Positions 1-15,216 of a DNA stretch of 16,885 nucleotides are shown here, piece after piece. The stretch comes from Promethearchaeota archaeon (GTDB taxonomy: Archaea; Asgardarchaeota; Lokiarchaeia; Sigyniarchaeales; SOKP01). The stretch's first letter is position 1; every line of letters begins with the position of its first letter. The stretch is from assembly GCA_048938445.1 (NCBI GenBank), contig JBHLME010000097.1, positions 1 through 16,885 on the forward strand, written 5' to 3'. Under the pieces are notes generated by a model. It ran no database searches. It was not told where the DNA came from and worked only from the letters and a program-made list of their open reading frames with translations. The position numbers and the translations under genes are program-made.

Positions 1-111
1 ACTACTTTCATTATCAATAATTCTTGATAATATCTCTATTGAGTTCTCAAGTCCTAATTCTTCACGTCGTTGAAATACATCACGAGGAAGATTAATCTTT
101 TCTATTTGCAG
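1..111 (-). CDS. Probable 5' end of a gene running off the left edge; hypothetical protein
   Basis: Stop-free minus-strand frame from 117 to 1 (YKLQIEKINLPRDVFQRREELGLENSIEILSRIIDNESS...), bounded by TGA at 120-118. The only plausible start is CTG at 111-109. Composition is protein-like, but the start codon is non-canonical and the frame is short. Confidence 0.4.
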   Translation of the reverse strand, partial: MQIEKINLPRDVFQRREELGLENSIEILSRIIDNESS

Positions 112-184
112 TTTATATCATTAACTGATTAATTTTTAATTATACTATTATCATATTTAATCATTAAAATATTTTAATCTATCG

Positions 185-248
185 GGATCGATCATTTAGT
201 AGTTATTTCGTGATCGAGAACGGCGATAACTATCAATATTGATCATCC
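185..248. repeat. Long imperfect inverted repeat/hairpin in divergent intergenic region
   Basis: GGAT(185-188)/ATCC(245-248), GATCA(190-194)/TGATC(240-244), TAGTTAT(200-206)/ATAACTA(226-232), CGT(209-211)/ACG(220-222). It also contains the perfect palindrome ATCAATATTGAT (232-243). Confidence 0.5.
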
Positions 249-483
249 AAAAACAATAAATTATTGAGTTTCGAAAAAGATCTGTGGTATATTTTTTTAT
301 TTATTCACTCTCAATTATTTATTTTGAATAAATTTAATAAAAAAAAAAATAGTGAATCTTCTGTCAATAAAGAGGGTACTTTTATCCAAACAAAAATATA
401 AAAATATTAAAAATATGATCTTATAAATTTTTAAAAAAAATATACGTAAAAAATTTTATAATGTTTATTTAGGGGCTATAAGA

Positions 484-1284
484 ATGGTAGATTTAATTGA
501 AATTATATTCGCTGCAATTTATATTCCTATTTTAATAACAATAGCAACTTACTTGTTATACAAAGCCATAAAGATTAAAGCTAATAACGTTATTTTTATA
601 TCTTTATATTTTTACATGATTGGTTTAGATTTCCTATTTGAAACTTTTTATTTAAAAGATTTAGCATATGAAATATTTGCAATTTTCACAAATACTCCCT
701 TAATCTTGCTCATTTTTTTTATTAAATATACATTTTACAAGGAAAAAAAAAGCGCATTCAAATTTATTTTAGTTTTATTCATCATATTAAGAGTTTCAGA
801 ATTAATTTTGAGATTACCTAATAACTTTACAATCCCTCAAGACACCCCAATTACTGAATCTCAAGTTCCAATTTATTATATATTTGAAATAATAGTTATT
901 CTGAATTCGTATTTGGTCAATGGTTGGTTTTTTTACGTATCATTTCGCACTTATCGTTCTCTTGAAAACTTAAATATAGAACCATGGATAAAAAGAAGAT
1001 ATTTAATTATCTCTTATGCCATTCTATGTAGTGCAGTTTCAACTTCATTGAGTATTTTCATACCTCCAATAGGCGGGGGATACCAAGGAACATCTTTATC
1101 AATTAGCATAGCTTTATTAAAACTCCCATTTGTAATGTCATTTTATTTTGGAAGTCTAATTGGATGGATAATGCCGAAAAAATTAAAATTATATTTTAAT
1201 AAAAATTATAAAATAATTGAAGATAAAGAATTTTCTGAAGAAGAATTAATGAATTTAATAAGAAATCAATTATCTGAGAAATAA
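484..1284 (+). CDS. Hypothetical integral membrane protein, about 7 TM helices, acidic C-terminal tail
   Basis: 266 aa with about seven hydrophobic stretches separated by Lys/Arg-rich loops and tail ...EDKEFSEEELMNL. AGGGG precedes the ATG. Confidence 0.8.
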   Translation: MVDLIEIIFAAIYIPILITIATYLLYKAIKIKANNVIFISLYFYMIGLDFLFETFYLKDLAYEIFAIFTNTPLILLIFFIKYTFYKEKKSAFKFILVLFIILRVSELILRLPNNFTIPQDTPITESQVPIYYIFEIIVILNSYLVNGWFFYVSFRTYRSLENLNIEPWIKRRYLIISYAILCSAVSTSLSIFIPPIGGGYQGTSLSISIALLKLPFVMSFYFGSLIGWIMPKKLKLYFNKNYKIIEDKEFSEEELMNLIRNQLSEK

Positions 1285-1315
1285 CATCTTAAAATCGCAT
1301 TAAATAAGAGATATT

Positions 1316-2179
1316 CTATTTTATTTTTAAGAATTCAGCTAAAGGTTTTGAATGAATTGAAAAATATTTGAAAATTTTATTAAACACCTCAACTGCTCCT
1401 GGTTCATTTTCAATTAAAAAATAAGGCCCTATTCCAAATTCTTCCTTTTCATTGAGAAAAAAATGGATGATATCATTATATCGCATCATTATGAATCTAA
1501 ATCTATCAATATTATCTGTTATTTGAAATCTTTCTTTAATTTCGGGATTTTTTATCATGTTATTTATTAATTCATTATTCTCCACATCTTTTAGGATATT
1601 TTTATCAGTAATTAATTTGAGATTAATTTCATTGAGTAAATTTTTTATTGATTCATTATTCAAATCTATTTCATTAAACGTATTTTGGATGATTTCAATC
1701 CCTAAAGCAAGGCTATTCCATCCAAGTACCTTGATTTCAATTTTTTTGTTGCCTAGTTCAGCTTTTATTTGGTTTAACATCCTATTTGAAATTGTAATGA
1801 ATTGCCATTGATTAGTAATTATTGGGATATTTTTAAGAAACGGTAATAGTTCTGAAATGTATTCTGAAGGAATAAAATCAGCATCAATTTGACCAAAAAT
1901 GATGCTTGTTTTATTTAAAATTTCTAAATCATCAAGAGTATTTAAAATATAGCTTCCAAAGTTAGAAAGATAATATAATTTTTCAGATTTAAAGATTAAC
2001 TTTGCGTTTAATAATTTTTTTAAATGATCTTTAACAGTTGAGGTTTTTTCGTTTACAATTATGGAAGTATCAGTCAAGTTCAAACCGTTTTTCTTTTCTG
2101 AATATACTTTCAGTATTTTAAATGCAATTCGATTTGAAAATGAATTTAAGAAATTAAAGAAATTTGGTGAGCTAACCAT
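1316..2179 (-). CDS. Winged-HTH transcriptional regulator (ArsR-like N-terminal wHTH plus C-terminal putative effector domain)
   Basis: N-terminal 'SNRIAFKIL...LNLTDTSIIVNEKTSTVKDHLKKLLNAKLIFKSEKLYYLSNFG' fits an archaeal wHTH pattern. Divergent from the SDR genes. Confidence 0.75.
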   Translation of the reverse strand: MVSSPNFFNFLNSFSNRIAFKILKVYSEKKNGLNLTDTSIIVNEKTSTVKDHLKKLLNAKLIFKSEKLYYLSNFGSYILNTLDDLEILNKTSIIFGQIDADFIPSEYISELLPFLKNIPIITNQWQFITISNRMLNQIKAELGNKKIEIKVLGWNSLALGIEIIQNTFNEIDLNNESIKNLLNEINLKLITDKNILKDVENNELINNMIKNPEIKERFQITDNIDRFRFIMMRYNDIIHFFLNEKEEFGIGPYFLIENEPGAVEVFNKIFKYFSIHSKPLAEFLKIK

Positions 2180-2210
2180 ATTAATATTAATATCAAATTC
2201 ATTAATTTTA

Positions 2211-2244
2211 AATTTTTACGGAATTTTCGCAAAAAGTAAAAATT
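2211..2244. promoter_or_regulatory. Candidate operator: 9-bp inverted repeat between the divergent regulator and SDR genes
   Basis: AATTTTTAC (2211-2219), 16-nt spacer, GTAAAAATT (2236-2244), about 30 bp upstream of the regulator start. The AT-rich background lowers significance. Confidence 0.3.
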
Positions 2245-2456
2245 CTAAATATAACGACAATTACGCTCAATATAATATTTCTGAAATCTGGAATTTTTAT
2301 TTTAATCTAGACATATTTATTATTCCAATTATAAGAATTGGTAAAATATTTAAATTTTTAAATTTTATATAAATCAATTATCAATTCTTTTTATATTACT
2401 AAATTGAAGATATTGAGTTTAATTGTGATAAATATTATTGGGGGAGTTGGTGAGTA

Positions 2457-3437
2457 TTGAGAGTTTTATTGACGGGAGCTTTTGGTAATGTTGGAACTAG
2501 TACTTTAAAAAGCCTAATTAAGCAAGGTAATACCGTTAGATGTTTTGATATTAAAAACTCTAAAACTAAAAAGATACAGAAAAAATATATTAAAAAATAT
2601 AAATTTGAGACGTTTTGGGGTGATATTACCAACATTGACGATGTTTACCAAGCAGTGAAAGGTGTCGATTCTATTATTCACCTTGCAGGAATTATACCTC
2701 CTTTAAGTGAAAAAATCCCGGTTATAGCCTATGATGTGAATGTTAAGGGAACAGAAAATATTGTTAAATCAGTAAAAAAATTAGAAAACCAACCGATTAT
2801 AGTGTTTGCTAGCTCTTGTTCAGTTTTTGGAAAAACTATGTCTTTATCTCCTCCAAGAAATTCGAATGATCCTGTAAATCCCTCAGATAATTACACAAAT
2901 CAAAAAATAATGTGTGAAAAAATAATAAAAGAAAGCGGTTTAAATTGGGTGATCCTACGTATTGCAGCAGCATTACCCTTGAAATTACCCCTGAAATTAG
3001 ATCCGATATTATTTGAAATTCCTTTAAATCAACGGATTGAATTCTTATATACTGGTGATGCAGGTGTTGCTTTTGCTAATGCATTGAACCTTCAAGAAAA
3101 AGAAAAAATTTTATTAATTGGAGGAGGAAAGAAATGTCAAATATATCAAGAGGATTTTGTAAAAAAAATTTTAAACACAATGGGAATATCAATGCCCTCC
3201 AATTTAGCTTTTAAGCAAGTTGAGAATGATTCTGATTGGTTTTATACCGATTGGCTTGATACAGAAGAATCTCAAGACTTACTCGAATATCAAAATAATT
3301 CTTTTGAAGATTATATTGAAAAATTAAATAAAAATGGCGCCCTGCGTAGATTAGGATTAAAGATATTGAGTCCTTTAGTGAAGATGAGTCTTCTTAAAAT
3401 GTCCCCTTATTATAAACTCAATAAAAAAATTTCCTAA
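2457..3437 (+). CDS. NAD(P)-dependent epimerase/dehydratase family (extended SDR) oxidoreductase
   Basis: TGAFGNVG Rossmann motif, GDIT, HLAG, VNVKGT, ASS and catalytic YTNQK (YxxxK). TTG start preceded by SD-like GGAG/GGTGA. Confidence 0.9.
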   Translation: MRVLLTGAFGNVGTSTLKSLIKQGNTVRCFDIKNSKTKKIQKKYIKKYKFETFWGDITNIDDVYQAVKGVDSIIHLAGIIPPLSEKIPVIAYDVNVKGTENIVKSVKKLENQPIIVFASSCSVFGKTMSLSPPRNSNDPVNPSDNYTNQKIMCEKIIKESGLNWVILRIAAALPLKLPLKLDPILFEIPLNQRIEFLYTGDAGVAFANALNLQEKEKILLIGGGKKCQIYQEDFVKKILNTMGISMPSNLAFKQVENDSDWFYTDWLDTEESQDLLEYQNNSFEDYIEKLNKNGALRRLGLKILSPLVKMSLLKMSPYYKLNKKIS

Positions 3438-3557
3438 AGATATAACTGATACTTTAAAAAAGATACATGATGAATTTGTATACAATGAAATAAATAATTA
3501 CTGAATAAACTGTCTAACTAAAATGGAATATTAAAAAATAAATTAGGTGACTTAACA

Positions 3558-5108
3558 ATGGAGAAAGAGAGAGTTTTTTTACCAGGTGCCAGTGGTTCTA
3601 TGGGATTTGAGGCTTTTAGAAATTTATGGTTGAGACGAGATAAATATGATATTGTATTATTGCAACGACCATCAAAAAAAAATAAGAAAATTTTCAGATC
3701 TTATGAGAAACAATGTGGTATCAAACCTATAAAAGGTAGAGGAATTGTTGAAGGAACAGGATTAAAAATTATATGGGGTGATGCAACCAATTATGATGAT
3801 ATTTTCGAGGCATGTAAGGGAATAGATTGGTGTCTTTGTCCAATGGCTTTCATATCTCCAGCAGCAGATCGCAATCCTAAAATGGCAAAAGCAGTGAATA
3901 CAACTGCTATTGAATATATTGTGAAAGCAATTGAAGCTCAACCAAACGGAGCGGAACATATAAAATTTGTATATACTGGAACAGTTGCGGCAACCGGAGA
4001 TCGATTACCACCAATCCATATGGGGCGAATTGGTGATCCTTTAAAACCAAGTGTGTTTGATTTTTATGCTGTAACAAAAATAATGGGCGAAAGGGCAGTA
4101 TTAGAATCCAATATAAAACATTGGGCATCATTACGGCAGACTTTTATTATGATCCCTGATGTAATGTCTTTAATGGACCCTATAATGTTCCATCAACCAA
4201 TTAATTCTTTCATGGAAAATAATACTAATCGAGACGCTGGACGAGGATTAATTAACTGTCTGGACATTCCGGATGATTCGGATTTTTGGAAACGTGTTTA
4301 TAACATGGCAGGAGGTCCTTCTTGTAGGATAACCTTCTATGAATTCATGAATAAAACAATGGAAATGAATGGTGTTGGCAATACTGATGATGTCGCAGAG
4401 CGTAAATGGTTTGCATTACGTAATTTTCATATGCAATTTTATGAAGATAGCTGGATTCTCAATGAGTACATACATAACTGGGGAGATAGTGTCGAAGATT
4501 ACTTAAGAATAATGAAGGAAAATAGACCTTCTTATATTAAATTTGCTGCTTGGTTATCGGGTAAATCAAAAAGATTTAAAAAAATAGTACAAAACACGAC
4601 ACGCAAGAAATTAAAAAAACTGGCCTTAGATAAGACAGGAACGCTATATTGGTATGAAAATAAAAAAGACATGAGAATTTCAGCATTTTATAAGGACTAT
4701 GATACCTATGATGCCATACCAGATTGGGGAATAGACATGCCTCAAATAAATCCCCGACCAGAGTGGAAAAGGTTAGATCATGGGTATGATGAACAAAAAG
4801 GAACACTTAATTTAGAGGATTTAAAAGGAGCTGCTAGCTTCCGGGGTGGACAATGCCTTTCAAGCGAATGGGATGGGGACCTCTATTCAACATTAACTTG
4901 GAAATGTGCTTTTGACCATGAATTTAAAGCAAAACCATTCACAATTATAAAAGCAGGGCATTGGTGTCCAGAATGTCTAGCCCCACCATGGAATTATGAT
5001 GAAATCGCAAAAAAAAATCCTTTTTTTGCCCAAGTATGGTATCCTAACCATGATAAAAATGAACACAATTTTTATCCAGAAGATTGTTATTTAGATATTG
5101 CTGATTAA
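3558..5108 (+). CDS. Extended SDR (NAD-dependent epimerase/dehydratase family) with C-terminal Zn-ribbon-like domain
   Basis: PGASGSMG nucleotide-binding motif, GDAT, catalytic YAVTK, and C-terminal WKCAFDHEF...HWCPEC. SD AGGTGA at 3545-3550. Confidence 0.88.
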   Translation: MEKERVFLPGASGSMGFEAFRNLWLRRDKYDIVLLQRPSKKNKKIFRSYEKQCGIKPIKGRGIVEGTGLKIIWGDATNYDDIFEACKGIDWCLCPMAFISPAADRNPKMAKAVNTTAIEYIVKAIEAQPNGAEHIKFVYTGTVAATGDRLPPIHMGRIGDPLKPSVFDFYAVTKIMGERAVLESNIKHWASLRQTFIMIPDVMSLMDPIMFHQPINSFMENNTNRDAGRGLINCLDIPDDSDFWKRVYNMAGGPSCRITFYEFMNKTMEMNGVGNTDDVAERKWFALRNFHMQFYEDSWILNEYIHNWGDSVEDYLRIMKENRPSYIKFAAWLSGKSKRFKKIVQNTTRKKLKKLALDKTGTLYWYENKKDMRISAFYKDYDTYDAIPDWGIDMPQINPRPEWKRLDHGYDEQKGTLNLEDLKGAASFRGGQCLSSEWDGDLYSTLTWKCAFDHEFKAKPFTIIKAGHWCPECLAPPWNYDEIAKKNPFFAQVWYPNHDKNEHNFYPEDCYLDIAD

Positions 5109-5127
5109 ATAACTTTAAGTAAACCCA

Positions 5128-5159
5128 TTTCTTCTTTTTTTTTAACATTTTTGTTAAAA
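5128..5159 (+). terminator. Probable archaeal oligo-T terminator with short hairpin
   Basis: TTTCTTC plus T9 run (5135-5143) about 20 nt after the stop at 5108, then TTTTAACA-tttt-TGTTAAAA (5140-5159). Confidence 0.5.
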
Positions 5160-5344
5160 TAAAGGGCAAATTTAATTATATTTATTAAAATGTCGAATTA
5201 AATATATAAATAGTAGGCAGTTATATAATAATAATAATAAATTATTCAGAAAATTGTTATTTCCGATCATTATAAGGCTTATCAACGATCCAGAATGATC
5301 ATAGTAACTATTTTTAAAAAAATAGAGGTGGTGTGAAGAAATCG

Positions 5345-7282
5345 ATGGAAAATAAAAATTCTCATCGGATTGGATACTATGCTTGTCAGTGAGGGATAAA
5401 TATTCGTGGTAAAGTTGATTGCAACAAGTTAGTAGAATACGCAAAAAATATTGATGATGTCGTTATTTCAAAAAGTCATGCTTTTCTATGAACTGAAAGT
5501 GGTCAAAATGAGATTATTGAAGATATTAAAGAAAAAAAATTAGATAGAATAGTTGCTTCTGCTTGAACACCACGCACGCACGAACCCATTTATCGTGGGT
5601 CAATAGCAAAAACTGAGATAAGTCCTTATTATTTTCAGATGGTCAATGTTCGAGAGCATGTTAGCTGGTGTACCGAAGATAATGGAGAAGCGTTAGAAAA
5701 AGCAAAAATCTTGGTAAAAAGCGGAGTAGAACGTTCAAGATTATTAGAAGATATCCCTGTTAAAACTGTGCCTGTTGAACGAGCAGCTTTAATAGTAGGA
5801 GGGGGAATAGCTGGCATGAACGCAGCTTTAGATCTAGCAAATCAAGGATTAAAAGTTTATTTAGTCGAGATAAAAACGACAATAGGAGGTAGGATGGCAC
5901 AATTAGATAGGACTTTTCCTACTGATGATTGTGCGATATGAATCTGTGGGCCAAAGATGCTTGAAGTAAATCGACATGAAAATATAGAAATTATAGCTAA
6001 TTCGCAGGTTTCGAAAGTAGAAGGATATGTAGGGAATTATGAAATTACAATTAAAAAGGAACCTTGGTTTACTACAGATGAATGTAATGGCTGTGGTGCA
6101 TGTTCCGAAGTTTGTCCAGTTTACACTTCTAATTATTTTGATGAATATTTAGGTGCGCGAAAAGCTATAGATATATCGTTTGGTCAAGCCGTTCCTTTTA
6201 GGTATAATATCGATAGAAATTCATGTATTGAATGTTTTAGCTGCGTTGATGCTTGTGAATTACACGCGATTGATTTCAGTCAAGTCGAAGAAGAAGTAAA
6301 AGTAAAAGTCGGAGGGATCATTATAGCAACAGGTTGGGATATTTATGAACCGTTTGGAGAATATGGTTATGGTGAATATCTGAATGTTGTTACTCAAAAC
6401 CAATTAGAACGAATGTTAGCTCCGAATGGACCGTTAGAGGGACACGTTCGAAGGCCTTCAGATTTGAAAACACCTAAGGAAATCGTCTTTATAAATTGTG
6501 TGGGAAGCAGGGATACAGAAAGAACTTTTTGTAGTGGTGTTTGTTGTATGATAGGATTGAAGAATGCTAAACTACTCAAAGAAGAGTTTCCTGATGCTAA
6601 CATTACCATTTGCTATATAGACATGAGAACAGTTGAAAAGGGTTTCGAGGAATACTACCAAAGGGCTAAAGAATCTAATATTAGGTTAATTCGTGGGAAA
6701 GTTGGTGAAATTTCTGAAGATCCTGAAACAAAGAATATTAATCTAAGAGTTTATTCATCGTTGACCGACGAAATTATTAAGATTAAAGCAGAGCTCGTAA
6801 TTTTATCTAGTGCGGGTTTACCTTCAAAAGGTACAGGACAAATAGCTAAAGTTTTAAATTTAGATGCTGATAGAAATGGTTTTCTAACTGAATCTCATTT
6901 TGGATTAATGCCACAAGAGACTAAGACAAAAGGTATATTTATTGCAGGATGGGCTCAAGGCCCCAAGGATATAGCTTATTCGGTTTCACAAGCTAGAGCT
7001 TGTGCAAGTAAAGTTGCCGAAATGACGTCTGCAGGAGAAATAGATATTGAACTCATAGTCGCGGAGGTAGACAATGACTCTTGTATATCTTGTCAAAGAT
7101 GTGAGAAAGTATGTCCTAAAGGTGCAATTAAGATAATGGATGGAGAATATGCTGTTGTTGACGAGATAAATTGCGATGGGTGTGGAATATGTGCGACTTG
7201 CTGTCCTACTCTCGCAATTGATATAAGATATTATCGAGATGACCAATTATATGCTGAAATTGAAAGCATCCTAGGAGGTTAG
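5345..7282 (+). CDS. hdrA: Heterodisulfide reductase subunit A-like flavoprotein, selenoprotein with 4 Sec (645 aa)
   Basis: One continuous frame from ATG 5345 (alternative GTG 5333; SD-like GAGGTG 5325-5330) to TAG 7280-7282, interrupted only by TGA at 5390, 5489, 5564 and 5939 (U16, U49, U74, U199: ACQUGINI, AFLUTESG, ASAUTPRTHE, TDDCAIUICGPK). It joins ORF-track fragments 5639..5941 and 5957..7282. It contains the GGGIAG FAD motif, an inserted 2x[4Fe-4S] domain, the CVGSR...CSGVCC...K motif and a C-terminal 2x[4Fe-4S] domain. Length is typical of HdrA. Confidence 0.93.
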
Positions 7283-7287
7283 AACAA

Positions 7288-7749
7288 ATGAATGAAAAGT
7301 TAAATATTTTGATGTTTGCTTGCTTGAAATGAGGTTATAGTGCAGCAGATTTGGCTGGAGTCTCCCGTTTAAAATATACACCTTCTGTAAAAATATTGAA
7401 AGTCAGATGCACAGGAAGAATTGATATCAAGCATCTATTATTTGCTATCAAATCTGGAGCAGATGGAGTTATGATTGTAGGATGACGGCCAAATGAATGT
7501 CAGTTTAAAGATGGAAATTTTAAGGCAGAGTCTCATGTTGACCTGGCAAATCGGATTTTAGAAAGGCGTGGTTTTGGCAGCCAACGAATAAACCAATATT
7601 GGTTGAGTGGAGCAGAATCAGAGAAATTAGTCAAGAGTGTTGAGGATACTTTAGAAAAATTACTACGGATAGGTCCTAATCCCTTAAATTTAAACGGATC
7701 AAAAACAAAGAAAGAAGAAAAAGAAATAATAATAGCCCCTGTTGAATGA
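7288..7749 (+). CDS. mvhD: MvhD/VhuD/FlpD-family [2Fe-2S] subunit, selenoprotein with 2 Sec (153 aa); missed by the ORF track
   Basis: ATG 7288 with SD GGAGGT 7274-7279. Translation: MNEKLNILMFACLKUGYSAADLAGVSRLKYTPSVKILKVRCTGRIDIKHLLFAIKSGADGVMIVGURPNECQFKDGNFKA...GPNPL...APVE. TGA at 7330 (U15) and 7483 (U66) fall at conserved Cys positions. Ends at TGA 7747-7749 (TAA at 7756-7758 if read through). Confidence 0.93.
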
Positions 7750-7802
7750 ATCTTTTAATAAAATATTAGTTATAAGATGACAGACCTAGCAAAGGTAAGG
7801 GT
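7735..7802 (+). promoter_or_regulatory. Eukaryote-type SECIS element (kink-turn AUGA...GA core, apical AAA)
   Basis: 5' core AUGAA 7746-7750 and 3' core UGAC 7778-7781 (tandem G7748.A7780 / A7749.G7779). Upper helix UCUUUUAAU 7751-7759 pairs with GUUAUAAGA 7769-7777 (one U.U mismatch, one G.U). Apical loop AAAAUAUUA. Plausible lower helix CCUGUUG 7738-7744 with UAGCA..GG 7787-7795. Occupies the only sizeable intergenic gap in the operon. Folded by eye only. Confidence 0.8.
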
Positions 7803-7834
7803 ATCAATTAATAAAAAAAAATAAATATTAAATT

Positions 7835-9343
7835 ATGGTTCAAATAGAAAAGAATATTGAATTTAAAGGAATTTCTCCCAAGCAATTAATGGAAGCTACA
7901 TATTTTGCTTCTGAAAATTTTCAAGTGAGAGCATTTTATGAAGCAAAAGAAGAAATTCTTGCTATTGGAAAATATTCAGAAAAGGAATTTTATGAAATTC
8001 TTGATTCAATGATTGATGCTGAAACCGAACGTAAGTTAGTGCTTGAAAAATTGAAAGGACATAAGGCACTTTTTTTAGCTGAGATCATTAAAATTGTAAA
8101 GGATATACCTTCAATAAATGTTATAAGAGATATAATTTATTTAAAAGAGCAGGGTTATATCAAGGAAGAAATTGAAGTTAAAATTAAAAAAGTTATTAAG
8201 AAAATCAAAGGGGAAGAAAAAGAAGTAGAAGAGAAAGAATATTTCTATAGATATAAAGTGGATAAATTACCAGGTGATTTTTTAGAACATTTTTTTGAAC
8301 CCGTTTCTATTGTTTATGAATCTGGAGTATGTTGCCAATGCGGATGGTGTTCGTCTATTTGCCCCGTGAATGCAATTACTGTTGATGCTGATTCCTTGGA
8401 AATTGACGAAAAAACTTGTATGAAATGTGGATTATGCTTTTCGGTTTGTCCTCGTTCTTTTTCAATCGATCAAGCGTATAAGAACATCAAGCAATTAGAT
8501 AAATCTTTAAAGTGGTCTGATAAAGTTGGTGCCTATGTGAACATGTACACCGCATCCACGACTAAAAATGAAATTATTAAAGTACGTCAAGATGGAGGAA
8601 TAGTCACTTCAATTTTAGAGTATTTATTAAAAAATAAAATGGTTGATGCAATCGTAGCAGTTCAACATTCAAAAGATCTTTGGAAGCCAGAACCAGTAAT
8701 TATAGAAGATATCAAGGATCTTTATAAAACAGGAGGAACAAAGTATGCTAATTCTCCTTCATTAACTATTATTGATCAATGTAAGAAATATGAGAACATT
8801 GCTTTTGTAGGAGTTCCGTGTATGATGAAGGCAATTGAAAAAGGGTCCCTTTTTCCTAGTGGTTATGAATTTTTTAAAAATATAAAATATAAAATTGGTT
8901 TATTCTGTATGGAATCATTTCCTTATGATGGTATCATTCAATTAGCACAAGAACAATTCAAGAAAGATGTGAATGAACTAACGAAGATGAATATAGGAGG
9001 AGGTAAATTTATTATTAATTTAAAATCGGGAGAACAGATGGACGTGCCTTTAAAAGATGTCCAACAATATGCCCGAGATAATTGTCATTTTTGTGAAGAT
9101 TTAACTTCTGATTATGCTGATATCTCAGTAGGATCAATTGGTTCACAAGATGGTTGGTCTTCAGTCATTACCCGCTCTAAAGAAGCAGATAAAATTTTTA
9201 ATGATGTAGTGAAATCAGGGCTGGTTGAATATAAAAATCTAAAAGATGTTAAACCAGGACAATTTTTAGTAGAGAAGATTGGAGGGACAAAACGGGACAA
9301 ATGCAAGCCTATTGTTTTACAAAAAAATGATAAAAAAGATTAA
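7835..9343 (+). CDS. FrhB/FdhB-family (coenzyme F420 hydrogenase/dehydrogenase beta subunit-like) protein with ferredoxin domain and about 150-aa N-terminal helical/wHTH-like extension
   Basis: CCQCGWCSSICP and CMKCGLCFSVCP clusters; FrhB motifs QDGGIVT, GTKY, VGVPC, IGLFCME, CHFCED, ADISVGSIGS..GWSSVITR. Confidence 0.88.
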   Translation: MVQIEKNIEFKGISPKQLMEATYFASENFQVRAFYEAKEEILAIGKYSEKEFYEILDSMIDAETERKLVLEKLKGHKALFLAEIIKIVKDIPSINVIRDIIYLKEQGYIKEEIEVKIKKVIKKIKGEEKEVEEKEYFYRYKVDKLPGDFLEHFFEPVSIVYESGVCCQCGWCSSICPVNAITVDADSLEIDEKTCMKCGLCFSVCPRSFSIDQAYKNIKQLDKSLKWSDKVGAYVNMYTASTTKNEIIKVRQDGGIVTSILEYLLKNKMVDAIVAVQHSKDLWKPEPVIIEDIKDLYKTGGTKYANSPSLTIIDQCKKYENIAFVGVPCMMKAIEKGSLFPSGYEFFKNIKYKIGLFCMESFPYDGIIQLAQEQFKKDVNELTKMNIGGGKFIINLKSGEQMDVPLKDVQQYARDNCHFCEDLTSDYADISVGSIGSQDGWSSVITRSKEADKIFNDVVKSGLVEYKNLKDVKPGQFLVEKIGGTKRDKCKPIVLQKNDKKD

Positions 9344-9347
9344 AAGT

Positions 9348-10457
9348 ATGCCAAAATCATTTCAAGATTTGATAGATGAGGTTCATTCTAAGGGAATATG
9401 CCAAGAATGTGGTGGATGTGTTAGTTTTTGTAGTTCCGCAGATTATAATATTATAGGATTTCCCAATCCTAATGCTCCACCTGAGTATATAAATAAAGAG
9501 AAGTGCCTAGAATGTGGTATTTGTTATTGTTTATGCCCCCAAACTCATTATCTTCATGATGAGTTAGATTCATACTATAAGATATCAGATTTTCATTCCA
9601 TGCCCTTAGGACAGTACCACGATGTTATTTCTTGTCAAGCTAATGATCCTGATTTTTTAAGAGTTGGAACGGATGGCGGTGTAGTAAATTCAATTATTAA
9701 TTTTTTAATTGAAGAAAAAGAGATAGATGGGGCAATAGTCTCAAAATCAGAAGCTCCTTTTTTAAGAGAAGCAACTATTGCGTATAATAAAGATGATCTG
9801 ATTAAAGCTTCAGGAGCTACTTTAAACATAACACCTCAATTAACTGAAGTACAAAAATATTGCACGTATACTCATTCTATTCCTGAATTAAACCACTATA
9901 AATTTAAAAAATTGGCAGTTGTAGGAACACCTTGTCAAATATACACGATGCGATCCATGCAAAATCTAGGTGTAACACCCTCTGAAAATATCGAAATTTG
10001 TCTAGGTTTATTTTGTTATGAAAATTTTTCTTTTGATAAATCTCAAACAGGAAAATTCGAAAAAGATTTTAATTTTAAATTTGAAGATATAAAAAAAATC
10101 AATATTAAGGAAGATGTAATATTTAAAATATCCAATAATGGTAATGAAATTAGAACAATCCATGTACCCTTTAATCATTTAACAGATTATATGCGACCCG
10201 CATGTAATGCTTGCAGTGACTTTAGTAATCTTTATGCAGATATTTCATTTGGAGGTCTTGGATCACCTGATAAATACACTACTGTAATCACCAGAACTAA
10301 GAAAGGAAAAGATCTCATTTCCAAAGCAATAAATTCAGGAATTATCAATTCTCTCGATATGGATTTAGAAAAGAAGGAAAAGGTTACTAATTTACTTACT
10401 CAGTTTGCTTTGAAAAAAATTGATAGATATTTATCTCATATGGAAATAATACAATAA
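9348..10457 (+). CDS. Second FrhB/FdhB-family protein with N-terminal 2x[4Fe-4S] domain (369 aa)
   Basis: Start revised to ATG 9348 (MPKSFQDL...), 4 nt after the upstream stop. Motifs: CQECGGCVSFC, CLECGICYCLCP, TDGGVV, VGTPCQ, GLFCYE, CNACSD, ADISFGGLGS. Confidence 0.88.
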   Translation: MPKSFQDLIDEVHSKGICQECGGCVSFCSSADYNIIGFPNPNAPPEYINKEKCLECGICYCLCPQTHYLHDELDSYYKISDFHSMPLGQYHDVISCQANDPDFLRVGTDGGVVNSIINFLIEEKEIDGAIVSKSEAPFLREATIAYNKDDLIKASGATLNITPQLTEVQKYCTYTHSIPELNHYKFKKLAVVGTPCQIYTMRSMQNLGVTPSENIEICLGLFCYENFSFDKSQTGKFEKDFNFKFEDIKKINIKEDVIFKISNNGNEIRTIHVPFNHLTDYMRPACNACSDFSNLYADISFGGLGSPDKYTTVITRTKKGKDLISKAINSGIINSLDMDLEKKEKVTNLLTQFALKKIDRYLSHMEIIQ

Positions 10458-10465
10458 AAAAAAGA

Positions 10466-11725
10466 GTGAATACCATAACTGAAATTAGTAAAAAGACTAA
10501 ACAAGGGGAAAGTGAACAAGTAGAAAGAGAAATTTTACCTGATTTAAAGGACCTTTTAAAAAGGTGTTATCAATGTGGAAGATGTTCAGGAGTTTGCCAA
10601 CTTTCAAAAGTCGAAAAATTTACTCCAAGCAAGATTATTCAACTTATCTTGGAAGGATTTGAAGAAAAAGTATTAAATAGTGGAATTCTATGGGATTGTT
10701 TAACTTGTAATCATTGCCTTCAAAATTGCCCTCAAAATATAAATTTTGCCGATGTAGTGAGAATCGCGCGCTATAAAATGAGTAAACTCAAAAAGCAGAA
10801 TGTGGATGATTATATAGCCCATAAAGGAATGTATACTACAATTTCTGAAATAATGAGCAAAAGCAACATCCAACCAAAGAGAAATCTTGACTGGATTCCT
10901 AAGAATGTGAAAGTGTCTCATGAAAAAGGAGATATTTTATATTATGTAGGGTGTCTACCCTATTTTAATTATGAATTTGAAAATATTAACCCCATTGCCG
11001 AAAATACTTTAAAATTAATATCCAAAATTGAAAATAAAGAAATTTTAGTTTTTAAGGATGAAATATGCTGTGGACATGATATTTATTGGGGTCAGGGAAA
11101 AATAGATGAATTTATAAATTTAGCTAAAAAAAATATAAAAAAATTTGATGACGCAAAAATTTCAACGATAATTACGGCATGTGCCGAGTGTTATAGAACT
11201 TTCTTAGTAGACTACCCCAAAATTTTTAATAATTTTAAAGAACGATTTGAAGTTAAACATATAATTGAATATATTTATGATAATTGGAAAAATAATAAAA
11301 TAAAATTTAAAATTCCTAAAAAAAGTAAACAGGTACATTTTACATTTCATGATCCTTGTCGTTTAAGTCGATTTTTACCTAAGGATAATATGATTTTAGA
11401 AGAAAGTCGTGAGATTTTTAATTTCTTAAAAAAATTAGGATATAATTTTAAAGAAATGACTCATAACAAAGAAAATTCGCTTTGTTGTGGTGTTAGTTCT
11501 TGGATGAATTGTAATGAAAAATCCAAAGCTTTAAGATATAAGCGAATGCTTGAGGCTAAAGATGCTGGAGAAGTCATGGTAACTTCATGTCCAAAATGTC
11601 GAATTCATTTCCAATGCCTTCAAAATGATTATGAAAATATCGCTTCTATTCAAATATTAGATTTCTCTGAATTCTTAGTAGACCTTGTGGAACCAATTAA
11701 CCCAAATACGAAAAATGGTGGTTAA
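10466..11725 (+). CDS. HdrD/GlpC-like Fe-S oxidoreductase (HdrC-like 2x[4Fe-4S] plus two CCG domains)
   Basis: CYQCGRCSGVC and CLTCNHCLQNCP; CCG domain 1 YYVGC...CCG...CAEC; CCG domain 2 FHDPC...CCG...CPKC. GTG start; no TM segments. Confidence 0.88.
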   Translation: MNTITEISKKTKQGESEQVEREILPDLKDLLKRCYQCGRCSGVCQLSKVEKFTPSKIIQLILEGFEEKVLNSGILWDCLTCNHCLQNCPQNINFADVVRIARYKMSKLKKQNVDDYIAHKGMYTTISEIMSKSNIQPKRNLDWIPKNVKVSHEKGDILYYVGCLPYFNYEFENINPIAENTLKLISKIENKEILVFKDEICCGHDIYWGQGKIDEFINLAKKNIKKFDDAKISTIITACAECYRTFLVDYPKIFNNFKERFEVKHIIEYIYDNWKNNKIKFKIPKKSKQVHFTFHDPCRLSRFLPKDNMILEESREIFNFLKKLGYNFKEMTHNKENSLCCGVSSWMNCNEKSKALRYKRMLEAKDAGEVMVTSCPKCRIHFQCLQNDYENIASIQILDFSEFLVDLVEPINPNTKNGG

Positions 11726-11727
11726 AA

Positions 11728-14700
11728 ATGATGGAGGGGGCAGTATTAGTTATTGGAGGTGGGATTGCCGGAATCCAAACTTCCTTAGACTTAACAGAAT
11801 TGGGTTATAAAGTTTATCTTGTCGAAAAATCACCTTCAATTGGTGGGCGCATGGCTCAACTTGATAAAACATTTCCAACCAATGATTGTAGTTTATGCAT
11901 ATTAGCACCTAAAATGGTAGAGGTCTTTAGAAATCCTAATATTGAATTAATGACGTACCATGAAGTTAAAAAGGTTTCAGGAAAACCCGGAAATTTTACT
12001 GCAACTATCTTAAAAAAACCTCGATATGTAGATGAAAATAAATGTAAAGGATGTGGTGATTGTGCATCCAAGTGCCCAAAAATCGAAGTTCCTAATATTT
12101 TCGATATGAATTTGGGTAAAAGAAAATCTATATATATCCCATTCCCTCAAGCCGTTCCTCCCATATATGTAATAGATCCTGAATTATGCTTGAAATTAAC
12201 CAAAGGGGTGTGCGGAGTATGCAGTAAAGTATGTCAAGCAGATGCTATTAATTATGAGCAAAAACCTAAGGATATTCAAATTAAAGTGGGTGCAATTGTC
12301 GTTGCTACTGGTTTTGACATGCCAGCAGAAAAATTATCATCACGGTGGGGATATCAATACAAAAATGTTGTTTCTGCTTTAGAATATGAACGAATTTTAT
12401 GTGCCTCAGGTCCTTTTGGTGGTCATGTATTGCGACCTAGCGATCAAGAAGAACCCATAAATATTGCTTTTATTCAGTGTGCGGGTTCAAGAGACTTACA
12501 TGAAGGTGTTCCCTATTGTTCTAGTGTTTGTTGCATGTATACCGCGAAGGAGGCAATCATTACTCAAGAACATTCTGAAAATTCTAATTGTTTTGTTTTT
12601 AGACATGACATACGTGCCTATGGAAAGAATTTTTATGAGTTTACTGAACGTGCTCAAGAAGAATATGGTGTGAAGTATTTTCAAACGAAAATTAGCAAGA
12701 TAAATGAAGATCCTGAAACAAAAGATTTACTCATCCATTATGAAAATTTAAAGACAGGAAAATTCGAACAATTTAGGGCAAATCTGGTTGTTCTAGCAAC
12801 ACCTTTAGTACCTTCAGCAGGAAATAATGATTTAGCAGGAATTTTAGGTGTTGAATTAGATGAATATGGTTTTTTTAAAGAACGATCTTATTTTAACAAA
12901 TCAATGTCCTCTAAAGAGGGAATATTTTTATGTGGATTTTGTCAAGGTCCAATGGATATTCCTGAAACCGTTGCTGATTCTAGCGGTGTCGCATCTCAAG
13001 TTGCATCTTTACTTCATTCAGTATCATATACACAATTAGAAGATAACATACCTGAAATCGAAGAAAAGGAGGTTTTACAATCAGATGAGCCTCGCATTGG
13101 AGTTTTAATTTGTCATTGTGGAATAAATATTGGTAAGTACGTAGAGGTTCCAAGTGTAGCCGAATACGTAAGAACATTACCCAATGTTATTTATTGCGAG
13201 GATAATTTATATTCCTGCAGTTCTGACTCTCAAGCAAGGATAAAGGAAGTAATTAATGAATATAAATTAAATAGGTTTATCGTAGCATCTTGTACTCCTA
13301 GAACTCATGAAGCATTATTTCAAGAAACTTGTGTTGAAGCAGGCTTGAATAAATATTTATTCGAAATGGTGAACATCCGTGATCAATGTTCTTGGGTCCA
13401 CATGGAAGAACATGAAGCCGCAACTCAAAAGGCTAAAGATCTCATTAGAATGGCTGTAGCTAAAGCAAGATTACTAGAACCGTTGAAAGAGGAAGAAATT
13501 GAGATTGCCCCCACTGCCCTAGTTATTGGTGGTGGAATTTCTGGAATGACAGCCGCATTAAATATTGCAAGTCAGAATTTTAAGGTATTTCTTGTTGAAA
13601 AGGAGAATGAATTAGGGGGCAATTTAAGGTATCTCAACCTGTTATACCCTGTAAGTTATGATGCTAATGCATTTCTCGATGAGACTATTTTAAAGGTAAA
13701 AAAAAATAAAAACATAGAAGTGTTTCTTAGTTCTAATATTAAAGATATTAAAGGTTATATTGGTAATTATAATGTCTCAGTGTTAGATGAGAAGGATAAA
13801 ATTCATGAATTAACCATTGGGACTATTATTGTCGCAACAGGTACTTTAGAGCATAAACCTCTTGGTCTCTTTGAATATAATGAAGGTAATAATAATGTTA
13901 TTACTCAATTGGAGATGGAACAAAAACTTAAATCTAAAGATAAATCTTGGCTTGAGAATATAAATCGAATAACAACTATTCTATGCGTAAATGCTAGGCA
14001 GAAAGAAGGAATTACATATTGCTCTAATGTATGTTGTGGAAATGCAATTAAAAATATTAGTTATCTTAAAGAATTAAAACCAGAGTTAGAAATTGTCGTG
14101 CTCTATAGAGATCTTCAAATGGCTAAGAAAAAATATGAAGAATATTATCGAAATCGTAGAAAAAATGCTATATTTCTGAGATATGATCTCGATAATCCGC
14201 CTGTTGTTTTTAAAAAGAGTAAAAAGCCTGAAAGTTATCAAATTAAAGTATTTGATACGAATTTACAGGAACAAATTGAATTTGAGACAGATTTAATAGT
14301 TCTTTCGACACCGATGATTCCACCAGATAATAAAGAATTAGCTAAAATGTTAAAGGTTCCAATGGATCGAAATGGTTTCTTTTTGGAAGCTCATGTCAAA
14401 TTAAGACCATTAGATTTTGCTACTGATGGAATTTTCTTGTGTGGGTGTGCACAATGGCCAAAAAATATTCAAGATTCGATTTCGCAAGCAAACGGAGCAG
14501 CGGGGAGGGCAAGTAGATTTTTAAATGCTAAGACAATAAAGACTTCTGGGATTGTTGCGGAATCAAATCCTATATCTTGCATCGGTTGTGGGCAATGTGT
14601 TGATGTATGTCCTTATAATGCTATAGAACTTGTAGTTGCAATAAAAGAATTTGAAGATATTAATATCTCTACAAACAAATCATTTATCAATCCTGCTTTA

Positions 14701-15207
14701 TGTAAAGGATGTGGAACATGTGCTGCAACATGTCCTAATGGTGCAATTTCCATAAAACATTATGATTTTGATCAAATTACAGCGATGATAGAATCATATT
14801 TCAATCCCGAGATTTTAGTATTCTGTTGTAATTGGTGTTCTTATGCTGGCGCTGATTTGGCAGGAGTTTCTAGATTTCAATATCCTCCTAACATGCGAAT
14901 TGTTAGAGTAATGTGTTCAGGAAGAGTAGATCCTTCATTTATCTTAAAAGCTTTTAAAGATGGTGCTGATGGTGTGTTAGTCAGTGGTTGCCATATAGGT
15001 GATTGTCATTATATATCAGGAAATGAATATACAAAAGAGCGGTTTGAGAGACTCCATGAGATAATTATTAAGCAATTAGGAATTAATGAAAAAAGATTAA
15101 GGCTTGAATGGGTAAGTGCTTCTGAAGGTAAACGTTTCGCAGATTTAATCACTGAATTTACTCATCAAATCAAAGAGTTAGGACCTTTTGAATCAGCTTC
15201 AAATTAA
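11728..15207 (+). CDS. hdrA: Large HdrA-like protein with two FAD-binding modules fused to a C-terminal MvhD domain (all-Cys)
   Basis: Domain order: GGGIAG + TNDCSLC + inserted ferredoxin + CAGSR..CSSVCC; internal RIGVLICHCG...YSCS...ASCTPRTHE...RDQCSWVH domain; second GGGISG module with CSNVCC; C-terminal 2x[4Fe-4S]; MvhD domain from about 14803 (FCCNWCSYAGADLAG...MCSGRVD...GCHIGDCHY). Confidence 0.92.
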   Translation: MMEGAVLVIGGGIAGIQTSLDLTELGYKVYLVEKSPSIGGRMAQLDKTFPTNDCSLCILAPKMVEVFRNPNIELMTYHEVKKVSGKPGNFTATILKKPRYVDENKCKGCGDCASKCPKIEVPNIFDMNLGKRKSIYIPFPQAVPPIYVIDPELCLKLTKGVCGVCSKVCQADAINYEQKPKDIQIKVGAIVVATGFDMPAEKLSSRWGYQYKNVVSALEYERILCASGPFGGHVLRPSDQEEPINIAFIQCAGSRDLHEGVPYCSSVCCMYTAKEAIITQEHSENSNCFVFRHDIRAYGKNFYEFTERAQEEYGVKYFQTKISKINEDPETKDLLIHYENLKTGKFEQFRANLVVLATPLVPSAGNNDLAGILGVELDEYGFFKERSYFNKSMSSKEGIFLCGFCQGPMDIPETVADSSGVASQVASLLHSVSYTQLEDNIPEIEEKEVLQSDEPRIGVLICHCGINIGKYVEVPSVAEYVRTLPNVIYCEDNLYSCSSDSQARIKEVINEYKLNRFIVASCTPRTHEALFQETCVEAGLNKYLFEMVNIRDQCSWVHMEEHEAATQKAKDLIRMAVAKARLLEPLKEEEIEIAPTALVIGGGISGMTAALNIASQNFKVFLVEKENELGGNLRYLNLLYPVSYDANAFLDETILKVKKNKNIEVFLSSNIKDIKGYIGNYNVSVLDEKDKIHELTIGTIIVATGTLEHKPLGLFEYNEGNNNVITQLEMEQKLKSKDKSWLENINRITTILCVNARQKEGITYCSNVCCGNAIKNISYLKELKPELEIVVLYRDLQMAKKKYEEYYRNRRKNAIFLRYDLDNPPVVFKKSKKPESYQIKVFDTNLQEQIEFETDLIVLSTPMIPPDNKELAKMLKVPMDRNGFFLEAHVKLRPLDFATDGIFLCGCAQWPKNIQDSISQANGAAGRASRFLNAKTIKTSGIVAESNPISCIGCGQCVDVCPYNAIELVVAIKEFEDINISTNKSFINPALCKGCGTCAATCPNGAISIKHYDFDQITAMIESYFNPEILVFCCNWCSYAGADLAGVSRFQYPPNMRIVRVMCSGRVDPSFILKAFKDGADGVLVSGCHIGDCHYISGNEYTKERFERLHEIIIKQLGINEKRLRLEWVSASEGKRFADLITEFTHQIKELGPFESASN

Positions 15208-15216
15208 GAGAAATTA

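Follow-up and report, generated by a model that had tools for sequence, protein, structure and literature searches.

An Asgard hdrA-vhuD selenoprotein operon with selenocysteine at probable ligand positions of the HdrA N-terminal iron-sulfur cluster

Introduction

When an archaeal hdrA frame is crossed by four in-frame UGA codons, is it a working selenoprotein gene, and what would selenium do at the positions so encoded? This question is raised by a contig of a Promethearchaeota archaeon (Asgardarchaeota, Lokiarchaeia, Sigyniarchaeales; GenBank assembly GCA_048938445.1, contig JBHLME010000097.1), which we analysed over its positions 1–16,885 (16,885 nt, forward strand; hereafter the window). 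The original prediction, made from the sequence alone, read an hdrA frame at 5345–7282 as encoding four selenocysteines (Sec, U), three of them in the N-terminal iron-sulfur (Fe-S) domain. From the results below we consider it very probable that the window holds an Asgard selenoprotein operon composed of a four-Sec hdrA, a two-Sec vhuD and one Loki-type selenocysteine insertion sequence (SECIS), in which at least two of the N-terminal Sec probably serve as ligands of the [4Fe-4S] cluster HA3.

Such genes have been described before. For Lokiarchaeota, Mariotti et al. (2016, PMC4989117) reported HdrA with up to four Sec, always in tandem with VhuD, and a single lokiSECIS behind VhuD (9-bp stem, 11-nt loop) that may serve up to six UGAs; in their account, HdrA was never UGA-terminated. 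A 2024 survey in ISME J (PMC11227280) counted 1439 Asgard selenoprotein sequences, among which it gives HdrA and FrhD/VhuD as the most numerous.

An intact hdrA frame with UGA on cysteine columns only

The hdrA gene runs on the + strand from an ATG at 5345 to a TAG stop at 7280–7282 and comprises 645 codons. It encodes a five-domain HdrA in which an N-terminal Fe-S domain is followed by a flavin adenine dinucleotide (FAD)/thioredoxin-reductase fold, an inserted ferredoxin and a C-terminal ferredoxin. Translated with TGA as U, the frame gives 645 residues with exactly four U, and the four TGA positions named in the original prediction were exact. They encode Sec16 (5390–5392), the second position of a C14-x-U16-G motif in the N-terminal domain; Sec49 (5489–5491); Sec74 (5564–5566); and Sec199 (5939–5941), which belongs to the pair C196-x-x-U199 and occupies the canonical Sec site of HdrA. 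Within the 645 codons there was no TAA or TAG, although the stretch contains 54 and 35 of them when read in its two alternative frames, and a frame of this length free of both would arise by chance with a probability of about 5e-19 at the composition of the window (A 0.36, T 0.33). Translation table 11 recovers the gene only as two pieces, one of 100 aa (5639–5941) and one of 441 aa (5957–7282), as had been anticipated, and gene callers are reported to break up methanogen hdrA in the same way. The locus is also a practical warning that automatic gene callers break such genes apart.

Over its whole length, the translation matched solved HdrA chains (9sfi_A, E 2.2e-195; 8rvu_a, 2.4e-187; 5odc_A, 9.4e-185; 7bkb_A, 7e-162). 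Residues 7–644 aligned with 9sfi_A (653.8 bits), and Cys or X faced every U in the solved homologues. Pfam matches comprised Pyr_redox_2, NAD_binding_8 and FAD_oxidored at residues 149–225, in keeping with the FAD-binding GxGxxG fold of thioredoxin-reductase type, and ferredoxin-type dicluster domains at about 241–305 and 573–624. As an HdrA1-type heterodisulfide reductase subunit A, a subunit of an electron-bifurcating enzyme, the protein carries Cys patterns for six clusters: four N-terminal Cys (conserved Cys/Sec columns 14, 16, 49 and 74), two CxxCxxCxxxC motifs in the inserted ferredoxin (247, 250, 253, 257; 294, 297, 300, 304), one Cx10-12CxxxCC motif (385, 396, 400, 401) and two CxxCxxCxxxC motifs in the C-terminal ferredoxin (580, 583, 586, 590; 610, 613, 616, 620). 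Three of these columns hold U in the window.

To this gene we compared 80 orthologous hdrA loci (74–82% identity) from public genomes, nearly all of them labelled as Promethearchaeota or other Asgard archaea; the counts below include the window (n = 81). Choosing the frame by k-mer retained 80/80 loci, against only 66/80 with a motif filter. Codon 199 was TGA in 81/81. Codons 16 and 74 were each TGA in 79/81 and Cys in none; the two remaining loci (L086 and L102) were unscored at codons 16, 49 and 74 because their chosen frame segment (552 aa) begins past codon 74. At codon 49, TGA was present in 56/81 and Cys in 23 (17 TGT, 6 TGC). Codon 49 thus shows an alternation of Sec and Cys among these orthologues; at codons 16, 74 and 199 every scored locus has TGA. 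Conversely, codons 14 and 196 were Cys in 81/81 and never TGA. Elsewhere within HdrA, TGA appeared only at the Cys columns 300 (3/81) and 613 (2/81), so that hdrA UGAs sit on Cys columns only. Four Sec per HdrA was the commonest state (53 loci), ahead of three (22 loci) and five (4 loci), and each of the two truncated segments showed one.

Selection on the frame did not relax behind the TGAs. Among 74 closer pairs (pS 0.05–0.5), dN/dS was 0.13, 0.056, 0.048 and 0.054 for codons 17–48, 50–73, 75–198 and 200–645, and 0.26 over the poorly conserved first 15 codons. The 79 complete genes end in TAA (64) or TAG (15), never in TGA. In-frame UGAs thus face Cys in homologues and the frame is conserved downstream of them, which, judged from sequence, makes hdrA an intact, genuine selenoprotein gene in which purifying selection extends past each of the four UGAs.

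Two further observations concern columns that are not invariant. Residue 106 (codon 5660–5662) is Val in the window and Cys in 78/81 orthologues, and Cys26 (78/81) and Cys109 (75/81) are kept within the orthologue group and not across the wider family.

Selenocysteine machinery, genetic code and assembly support

The genome assembly has 256 contigs that total 4.63 Mb at 29.6% GC; its completeness is estimated at 96.5% and its contamination at 8.2%. The Sec machinery that the original prediction looked for was found in it. SepSecS (471.7 bits), a selB-family EFSec (243.3 bits) and SelD (181.3 bits), itself with one in-frame TGA, scored over their cut-offs, and a PSTK-like protein and a tRNA-Sec were found at scores below theirs. 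The tRNA-Sec has the anticodon UCA in the loop CUUCAAA and lies immediately upstream of SepSecS, and EFSec lies about 5 kb upstream of it on the opposite strand. A 30-nt AT-rich insertion in its D-arm accounts for its score under the Rfam threshold; without the insertion it folds as an archaeal tRNA-Sec, with a 9-bp acceptor, a 7-bp D stem, a 4-nt D loop and a 4-bp T stem. By sequence, then, the genome contains the full set of tRNA-Sec, PSTK, SepSecS, EFSec and SelD. Two contig ends that overlap, C108:40440–40558 and C157:1–75 (L002 and L001), each hold part of the tRNA-Sec.

If TGA had been reassigned genome-wide to a standard amino acid, in the manner of code 4 or code 25, an open hdrA frame with TGA as a sense codon would also be seen. 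We regard this as extremely improbable, since TGA works as a normal stop that ends 192/1055 long frames genome-wide, none of the 9 other long open reading frames of the window contains it in frame, its use among HdrA orthologues is restricted to Cys columns, and the genome encodes SepSecS, EFSec and a dedicated UCA-anticodon tRNA with a 9/4 fold.

The same applies to the possibility that the TGAs are ordinary stops, left either by a decaying pseudogene or by sequencing and assembly errors. The fragments called under table 11 are what such a gene would yield, and an assembly of 256 contigs with an estimated contamination of 8% leaves room for error. Against this, identical TGAs recur in 79–81 of 81 independent genomes, dN/dS stays at 0.05–0.13 between and after them as the original prediction required, the frame lacks TAA and TAG, and a SECIS (described below) and the Sec machinery are present. 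Independently assembled contigs from public runs of other studies also agree at the TGA sites that they cover, those of two further studies without a single difference: X3 record 17 (5552–6507) and X10 record 9 (5903–6094) showed 0 differences, and X9 record 25 (5357–5561) showed 1, a change 5395 G>T being listed for X9. Among the differences listed for such contigs, 40 of 78, none fell within a TGA codon. We therefore give almost no weight to the TGAs being stops. With TGAs conserved, dN/dS low, contigs from other studies in agreement, SECIS and machinery present and TGA otherwise a normal stop, we exclude for practical purposes that the gene is a pseudogene or that its TGAs stem from sequencing error or a reassigned code.

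A two-selenocysteine vhuD and a shared SECIS

The 550 nt that follow hdrA had been overlooked and are not intergenic: they hold vhuD and then a SECIS. After a spacer of 5 nt (7283–7287), vhuD/mvhD follows on the same strand at 7288–7749, with Sec15 (7330–7332) and Sec66 (7483–7485). It matched 9sfi_K (E 1.8e-36), which has X at both positions. The gene has 153 codons if the UGA at 7747–7749 terminates it, and otherwise two codons more, to a TAA at 7756–7758. This UGA is part of the SECIS AUGA and lies in the vhuD frame, and it probably ends vhuD; Mariotti et al. (2016, PMC4989117) describe VhuU.1 as terminated by the UGA of its SECIS AUGA. A vhuD with both Sec stood behind hdrA in 77/81 loci, and the flanks of the remaining 4 are too short. 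We also considered homology between the HdrA N-terminal domain and VhuD, and rejected it as not significant (BLASTP E 2.3; hhalign probability 0.6%, E 0.1), though both alignments pair U74 with VhuD U66; it was not used further.

The Loki-type SECIS occupies 7746–7780 (+) and overlaps the end of vhuD. It consists of AUGA (7746–7749), a 9-bp stem (7750–7758/7770–7778), an 11-nt A-rich loop (7759–7769) and GA (7779–7780). A pairing scanner found a SECIS in 73/77 loci, one pick being false (L080, inside frhB). The covariance model R1, built from the scanner's rows, located the true SECIS of L080 and also the elements of L058, L068 and L077, all four being absent from its training rows, and the last SECIS-less locus, L110, has a flank of only 356 nt. 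The false L080 pick remained as a junk row in the alignment A1 and in R1. In A1, 94.7% of cells were paired, a percentage inflated by a bias toward structure because the scanner demanded near-perfect pairing, and 8/9 stem pairs showed compensatory change; in 500 shuffles such values were never attained, and pairing fell to 40–57% when the register was slid. Compensatory changes at homologous columns are not accounted for by the preselection of the scanner. On contig C4, R1 gave a single match, at 7741–7785 (61.4 bits).

The locus thus has vhuD directly 3′ of hdrA with a short spacer, a single SECIS after vhuD and none after hdrA, and a non-UGA hdrA stop (TAG here). As Mariotti et al. (2016) proposed for Lokiarchaeota, hdrA and vhuD would share a bicistronic mRNA, and the one SECIS behind vhuD would guide EFSec and Sec-tRNA(Sec) to each of its six UGAs.

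Structural positions of the selenocysteines

By alignment, U199 corresponds to X197 of 9sfi_A and Cys205 of 8rvu_a, and C196 to Cys202. The first of these equivalences bears out the assignment of U199 to the known methanococcal Sec site, given as Sec197 in PMC13518236. C14, U16, U49 and U74 correspond to chain positions 11, 13, 46 and 71 of 9sfi_A and to 19, 21, 54 and 79 of 8rvu_a, where Cys faces U16 in both chains. VhuD U15 corresponds, by chain index in the alignment, to Cys16 of 9sw2_D. Within residues 1–135, no Cys/Sec column other than those of C14, U16, U49 and U74 stays invariant across the nine full-length paralogues of the genome and the solved homologues shown.

Published structures assign roles to these positions. 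The HdrA N-terminal domain carries the [4Fe-4S] "shuttle" cluster HA3 (PMC9012536, PMC13580544). As described there, the crystal structure has the N-terminal cluster bound by cysteines of the N-terminal domain plus Cys197 of the other HdrA copy; by cryo-electron microscopy (cryo-EM), the HA3/A3 cluster rides a mobile arm with MvhD, and the Cys202/Cys205 pair holds an unidentified density. For the Cys-Sec197 pair of Methanococcus maripaludis, a feature was interpreted as a Se-S bond (PMC13518236). A 2026 Sci Adv paper names Cys202, Cys205 and MvhD Cys16 as "additional conserved cysteines" between the MvhD [2Fe-2S] cluster and FAD, and the 2026 papers describe as unresolved how electrons reach the bifurcating FAD and how they leave it at low potential. 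Two of these three additional cysteines, at HdrA U199 and VhuD U15, are selenocysteine here.

Selenocysteine as cluster ligand or as redox residue

The original prediction held that U16, U49 and U74 replace conserved cysteines likely to be cluster ligands, with up to three selenolates on one cluster. The replacement of invariant cysteines of the N-terminal Fe-S domain stands, and homology together with the published descriptions makes these three residues likely ligands of the N-terminal cluster. At least three of positions 14, 16, 49 and 74 would ligate HA3, and at least two of U16, U49 and U74, probably all three, would be selenolate ligands. At least two of these Sec would bind iron both in a cluster with four N-terminal ligands and in one with three that is completed by the partner Cys197, because the N-terminal domain has only four invariant Cys/Sec. 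The number of selenium ligands on HA3 may accordingly be 2, 3 or 4, the maximum being three, or four if U199 of the partner takes part. As for U199 in the C196-x-x-U199 pair, its Cys197 equivalent would be the fourth ligand of the N-terminal cluster of the partner, as in the crystal structure, or the pair would bind the density or make a Se-S bridge from the arm clusters to the FAD, as in the cryo-EM work. VhuD U15, as the third additional cysteine (MvhD Cys16), would lie at the same interface as C196-x-x-U199. From these ligand and interface placements it follows that each of the six Sec would be part either of the mobile arm, which controls how electrons pass around the flavin, or of the place where this arm docks. 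This mechanism rests on the published roles of HA3 and of the cysteines in enzymes of the 5ODC/8RVU type.

The lineage tolerates Sec at undisputed cluster-ligand positions. Residues 300 and 613, where orthologues have TGA as counted above, are textbook ligand positions, namely the third and second Cys of CxxCxxCxxxC motifs.

Several results weigh against the reading of the locus as a selenoprotein operon with selenolate cluster ligands. The PSTK-like match (159 bits) is below its curated cut-off of 290.5, the tRNA-Sec (39.5–40.3 bits with RF01852) is below the Rfam cut-off of 47, and ARAGORN called no tRNA-Sec either in the whole genome (39 tRNAs) or on L001 and L002. Taken alone, the SECIS hairpin of the window is not significant: the minimum-free-energy structure of 7735–7834 contains it, at z -1.01, with 32/200 shuffles equally stable. 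Its stem carries one U.U mismatch, and an Rfam scan of 5000–8200 at E up to 10 gave two chance-level matches and no SECIS family. Canonical hdrB/hdrC and mvhA/G were absent from the window. Finally, Mariotti et al. (2016, PMC4989117) state that the Sec sites, bar one C-terminal, do not coordinate clusters, and propose catalytic redox roles.

The last of these points amounts to a different account of a real selenoprotein, in which the N-terminal Sec are redox-active or catalytic residues (selenol/selenenylsulfide) rather than ligands. It draws some support from the C-x-x-C/U pair, which published work treats as a Se-S link or as binding a ligand and not as a fixed cluster ligand, and from MvhD Cys16, the counterpart of VhuD U15, which is a non-ligand cysteine; some Sec of this operon are therefore probably not ligands. 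However, the non-ligand statement predates every HdrA structure, and later structures put these Sec columns in the HA3-bearing domain and at the Cys pair that faces HA3. The N-terminal domain binds a [4Fe-4S] cluster with only four family-wide invariant Cys/Sec, which leaves at most one spare, and Sec occurs in the lineage at ferredoxin-motif ligand positions, both at codons 300 (3/81) and 613 (2/81) and at codons 300 and 385 of a paralogue on contig C214. We thus regard a purely redox role of the N-terminal Sec as unlikely, and favour their role as cluster ligands.

The fullest form of the ligand model, in which HA3 is bound by U16, U49 and U74 together with Cys14, the docked arm meets a fourth selenium at U199′, and the six seleniums of hdrA-vhuD ring the electron site of the bifurcating flavin, is in our judgement evenly poised between true and false. 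Our literature search turned up no statement that the N-terminal Sec of Asgard HdrA ligate HA3, with Wagner et al. 2017 lying outside that search; the one explicit published statement, that of Mariotti et al. (2016), holds the contrary. The ligand corollary of the three N-terminal Sec is plausible and apparently unpublished.

Operon neighbours and function

Downstream of the SECIS, all on the + strand, lies an frhB/fdhB-like subunit gene with a 2x[4Fe-4S] insert (7835–9343; PF04432, PF04422); an frhB-like gene follows vhuD on the same strand in 76/80 orthologous loci. A second frhB-like gene, identified by Pfam and with an uncertain start codon, is at 9279–10457. About 3 kb downstream of hdrA, at 10466–11725, is an HdrD-like protein with 2x[4Fe-4S] and two CCG domains (PF02754, two stretches), a candidate disulfide-reducing subunit.

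The last gene of this series (11728–15207) encodes an all-Cys hdrA-hdrA-mvhD fusion of 1159 aa, identified by Pfam and a codon check. Module 1 is an HdrA with the CxxC and without the N-terminal domain, module 2 has the N-terminal domain and lacks the CxxC, and the MvhD domain comes last. The use of this paralogue as an internal all-Cys control proved accurate to the base. Its Cys codons TGT 13117, TGC 13216 and TGT 13291 (residues 464, 497 and 522) have the spacing of 33 and 25 codons seen for U16, U49 and U74, and TGC 11896 (codon 57) is separated from codon 10, where GGGIAG starts, by the same 47 codons that separate U199 from codon 152. In the description of Chadwick et al., fused HdrAs of anaerobic methanotrophic archaea (ANME) show a complementary "self-heterodimer" pattern of modules; the fusion of the window shares this pattern, with the module order reversed.

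From the gene content we infer that the operon encodes a flavin-based electron-bifurcating or confurcating complex with an FrhB-like input and an HdrD-like disulfide-reducing module. Views published on Asgard Hdr-Mvh favour H2-evolving confurcation.

Other selenoprotein HdrA genes in the genome

The genome contains further HdrA paralogues with Sec. One, at C214:60712–62640 (+) (L027), has five in-frame TGAs, at the columns of U16, U74, U199, C300 and C385; the C300 column is the third Cys of CxxCxxCxxxC and the C385 column the first Cys of Cx(n)CxxxCC. This gene has no vhuD behind it, and a SECIS match lies 72 nt downstream (C214:62712–62756, 35.7 bits). It differs from the description of Mariotti et al. 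(2016, PMC4989117) both in its five Sec, against "up to four", and in the lack of the VhuD tandem, given there as "always" present. Three other paralogues (C117:2097–4022, C204:2688–4598 and C20:3388–5313) have two Sec each, at the U16 and U199 columns. SECIS matches were found behind those on C204 and C20, and R1 found none for that on C117 (L024) at E up to 0.1. A SECIS also stands at C226:2335–2379 behind the Sec-containing SelD (C226:1319–2110), and further Loki-type matches were obtained at C24:4381–4426 and C53:11858–11902. The genome thus has at least seven SECIS, R1 having scored 150 of 14369 first-look candidates.

Relation to known systems

The pair in the window resembles that of Lokiarchaeota (Mariotti et al. 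2016, PMC4989117) in an HdrA with up to four Sec, with the canonical site near residue 200 and Sec on conserved Cys columns; in a vhuD directly downstream on the same strand, followed by one SECIS in which an AUGA...GA core is combined with a stem of 9 bp and an A-rich loop of 11 nt; in an hdrA stop that is never UGA; and in an EFSec that is encoded opposite in strand to tRNA-Sec and about 5–6 kb upstream of it. The tRNA-Sec insertion is in the D-arm here, whereas the Loki of Mariotti et al. (2016) has a 31-nt intron in the T-loop, and the five Sec of one paralogue and of 4/81 orthologues exceed the "up to four" given there. The novelty implied by the original prediction did not hold. The kind of gene is already known, because every item of Mariotti et al. 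(2016) recurs here and the 2024 survey counts HdrA among the most numerous selenoproteins; the copy in the window is one of many orthologues, and its four-Sec form is the majority state (53/81).

HdrA and VhuD of M. maripaludis (9SFI) likewise comprise a five-domain HdrA with Sec at C-x-x-U and a VhuD with Sec at both of the same positions. In contrast, M. maripaludis HdrA has Cys at the three N-terminal positions (13, 46 and 71) where the HdrA of the window has Sec, and the M. maripaludis enzyme is a methanogen CoM-S-S-CoB reductase with HdrBC and VhuAGU, whereas the neighbours in the window are frhB-like and hdrD-like instead. The homology to HdrA of Methanothermococcus thermolithotrophicus (5ODC) and Methanothermobacter marburgensis (8RVU, 9SW2-6) is also full-length, but those proteins are without selenium.

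Significance

The gene is ordinary for its lineage: HdrA with four Sec, VhuD with two and the eukaryote-like SECIS that they share stood at the centre of the 2016 paper on the Lokiarchaeota selenoproteome. Its remaining value lies in the structural corollary. Because nature has here placed selenium at almost all of the contested cysteines, the protein offers a ready spectroscopic probe (77Se, Se extended X-ray absorption fine structure) for the question of electron entry and exit at the bifurcating flavin. If the ligand model is true, the operon would provide a natural, mostly selenolate-ligated Fe-S cluster placed in the low-potential branch by which a flavin bifurcates electrons, where selenium would tune the potential, speed ligand exchange as the arm moves, or both.

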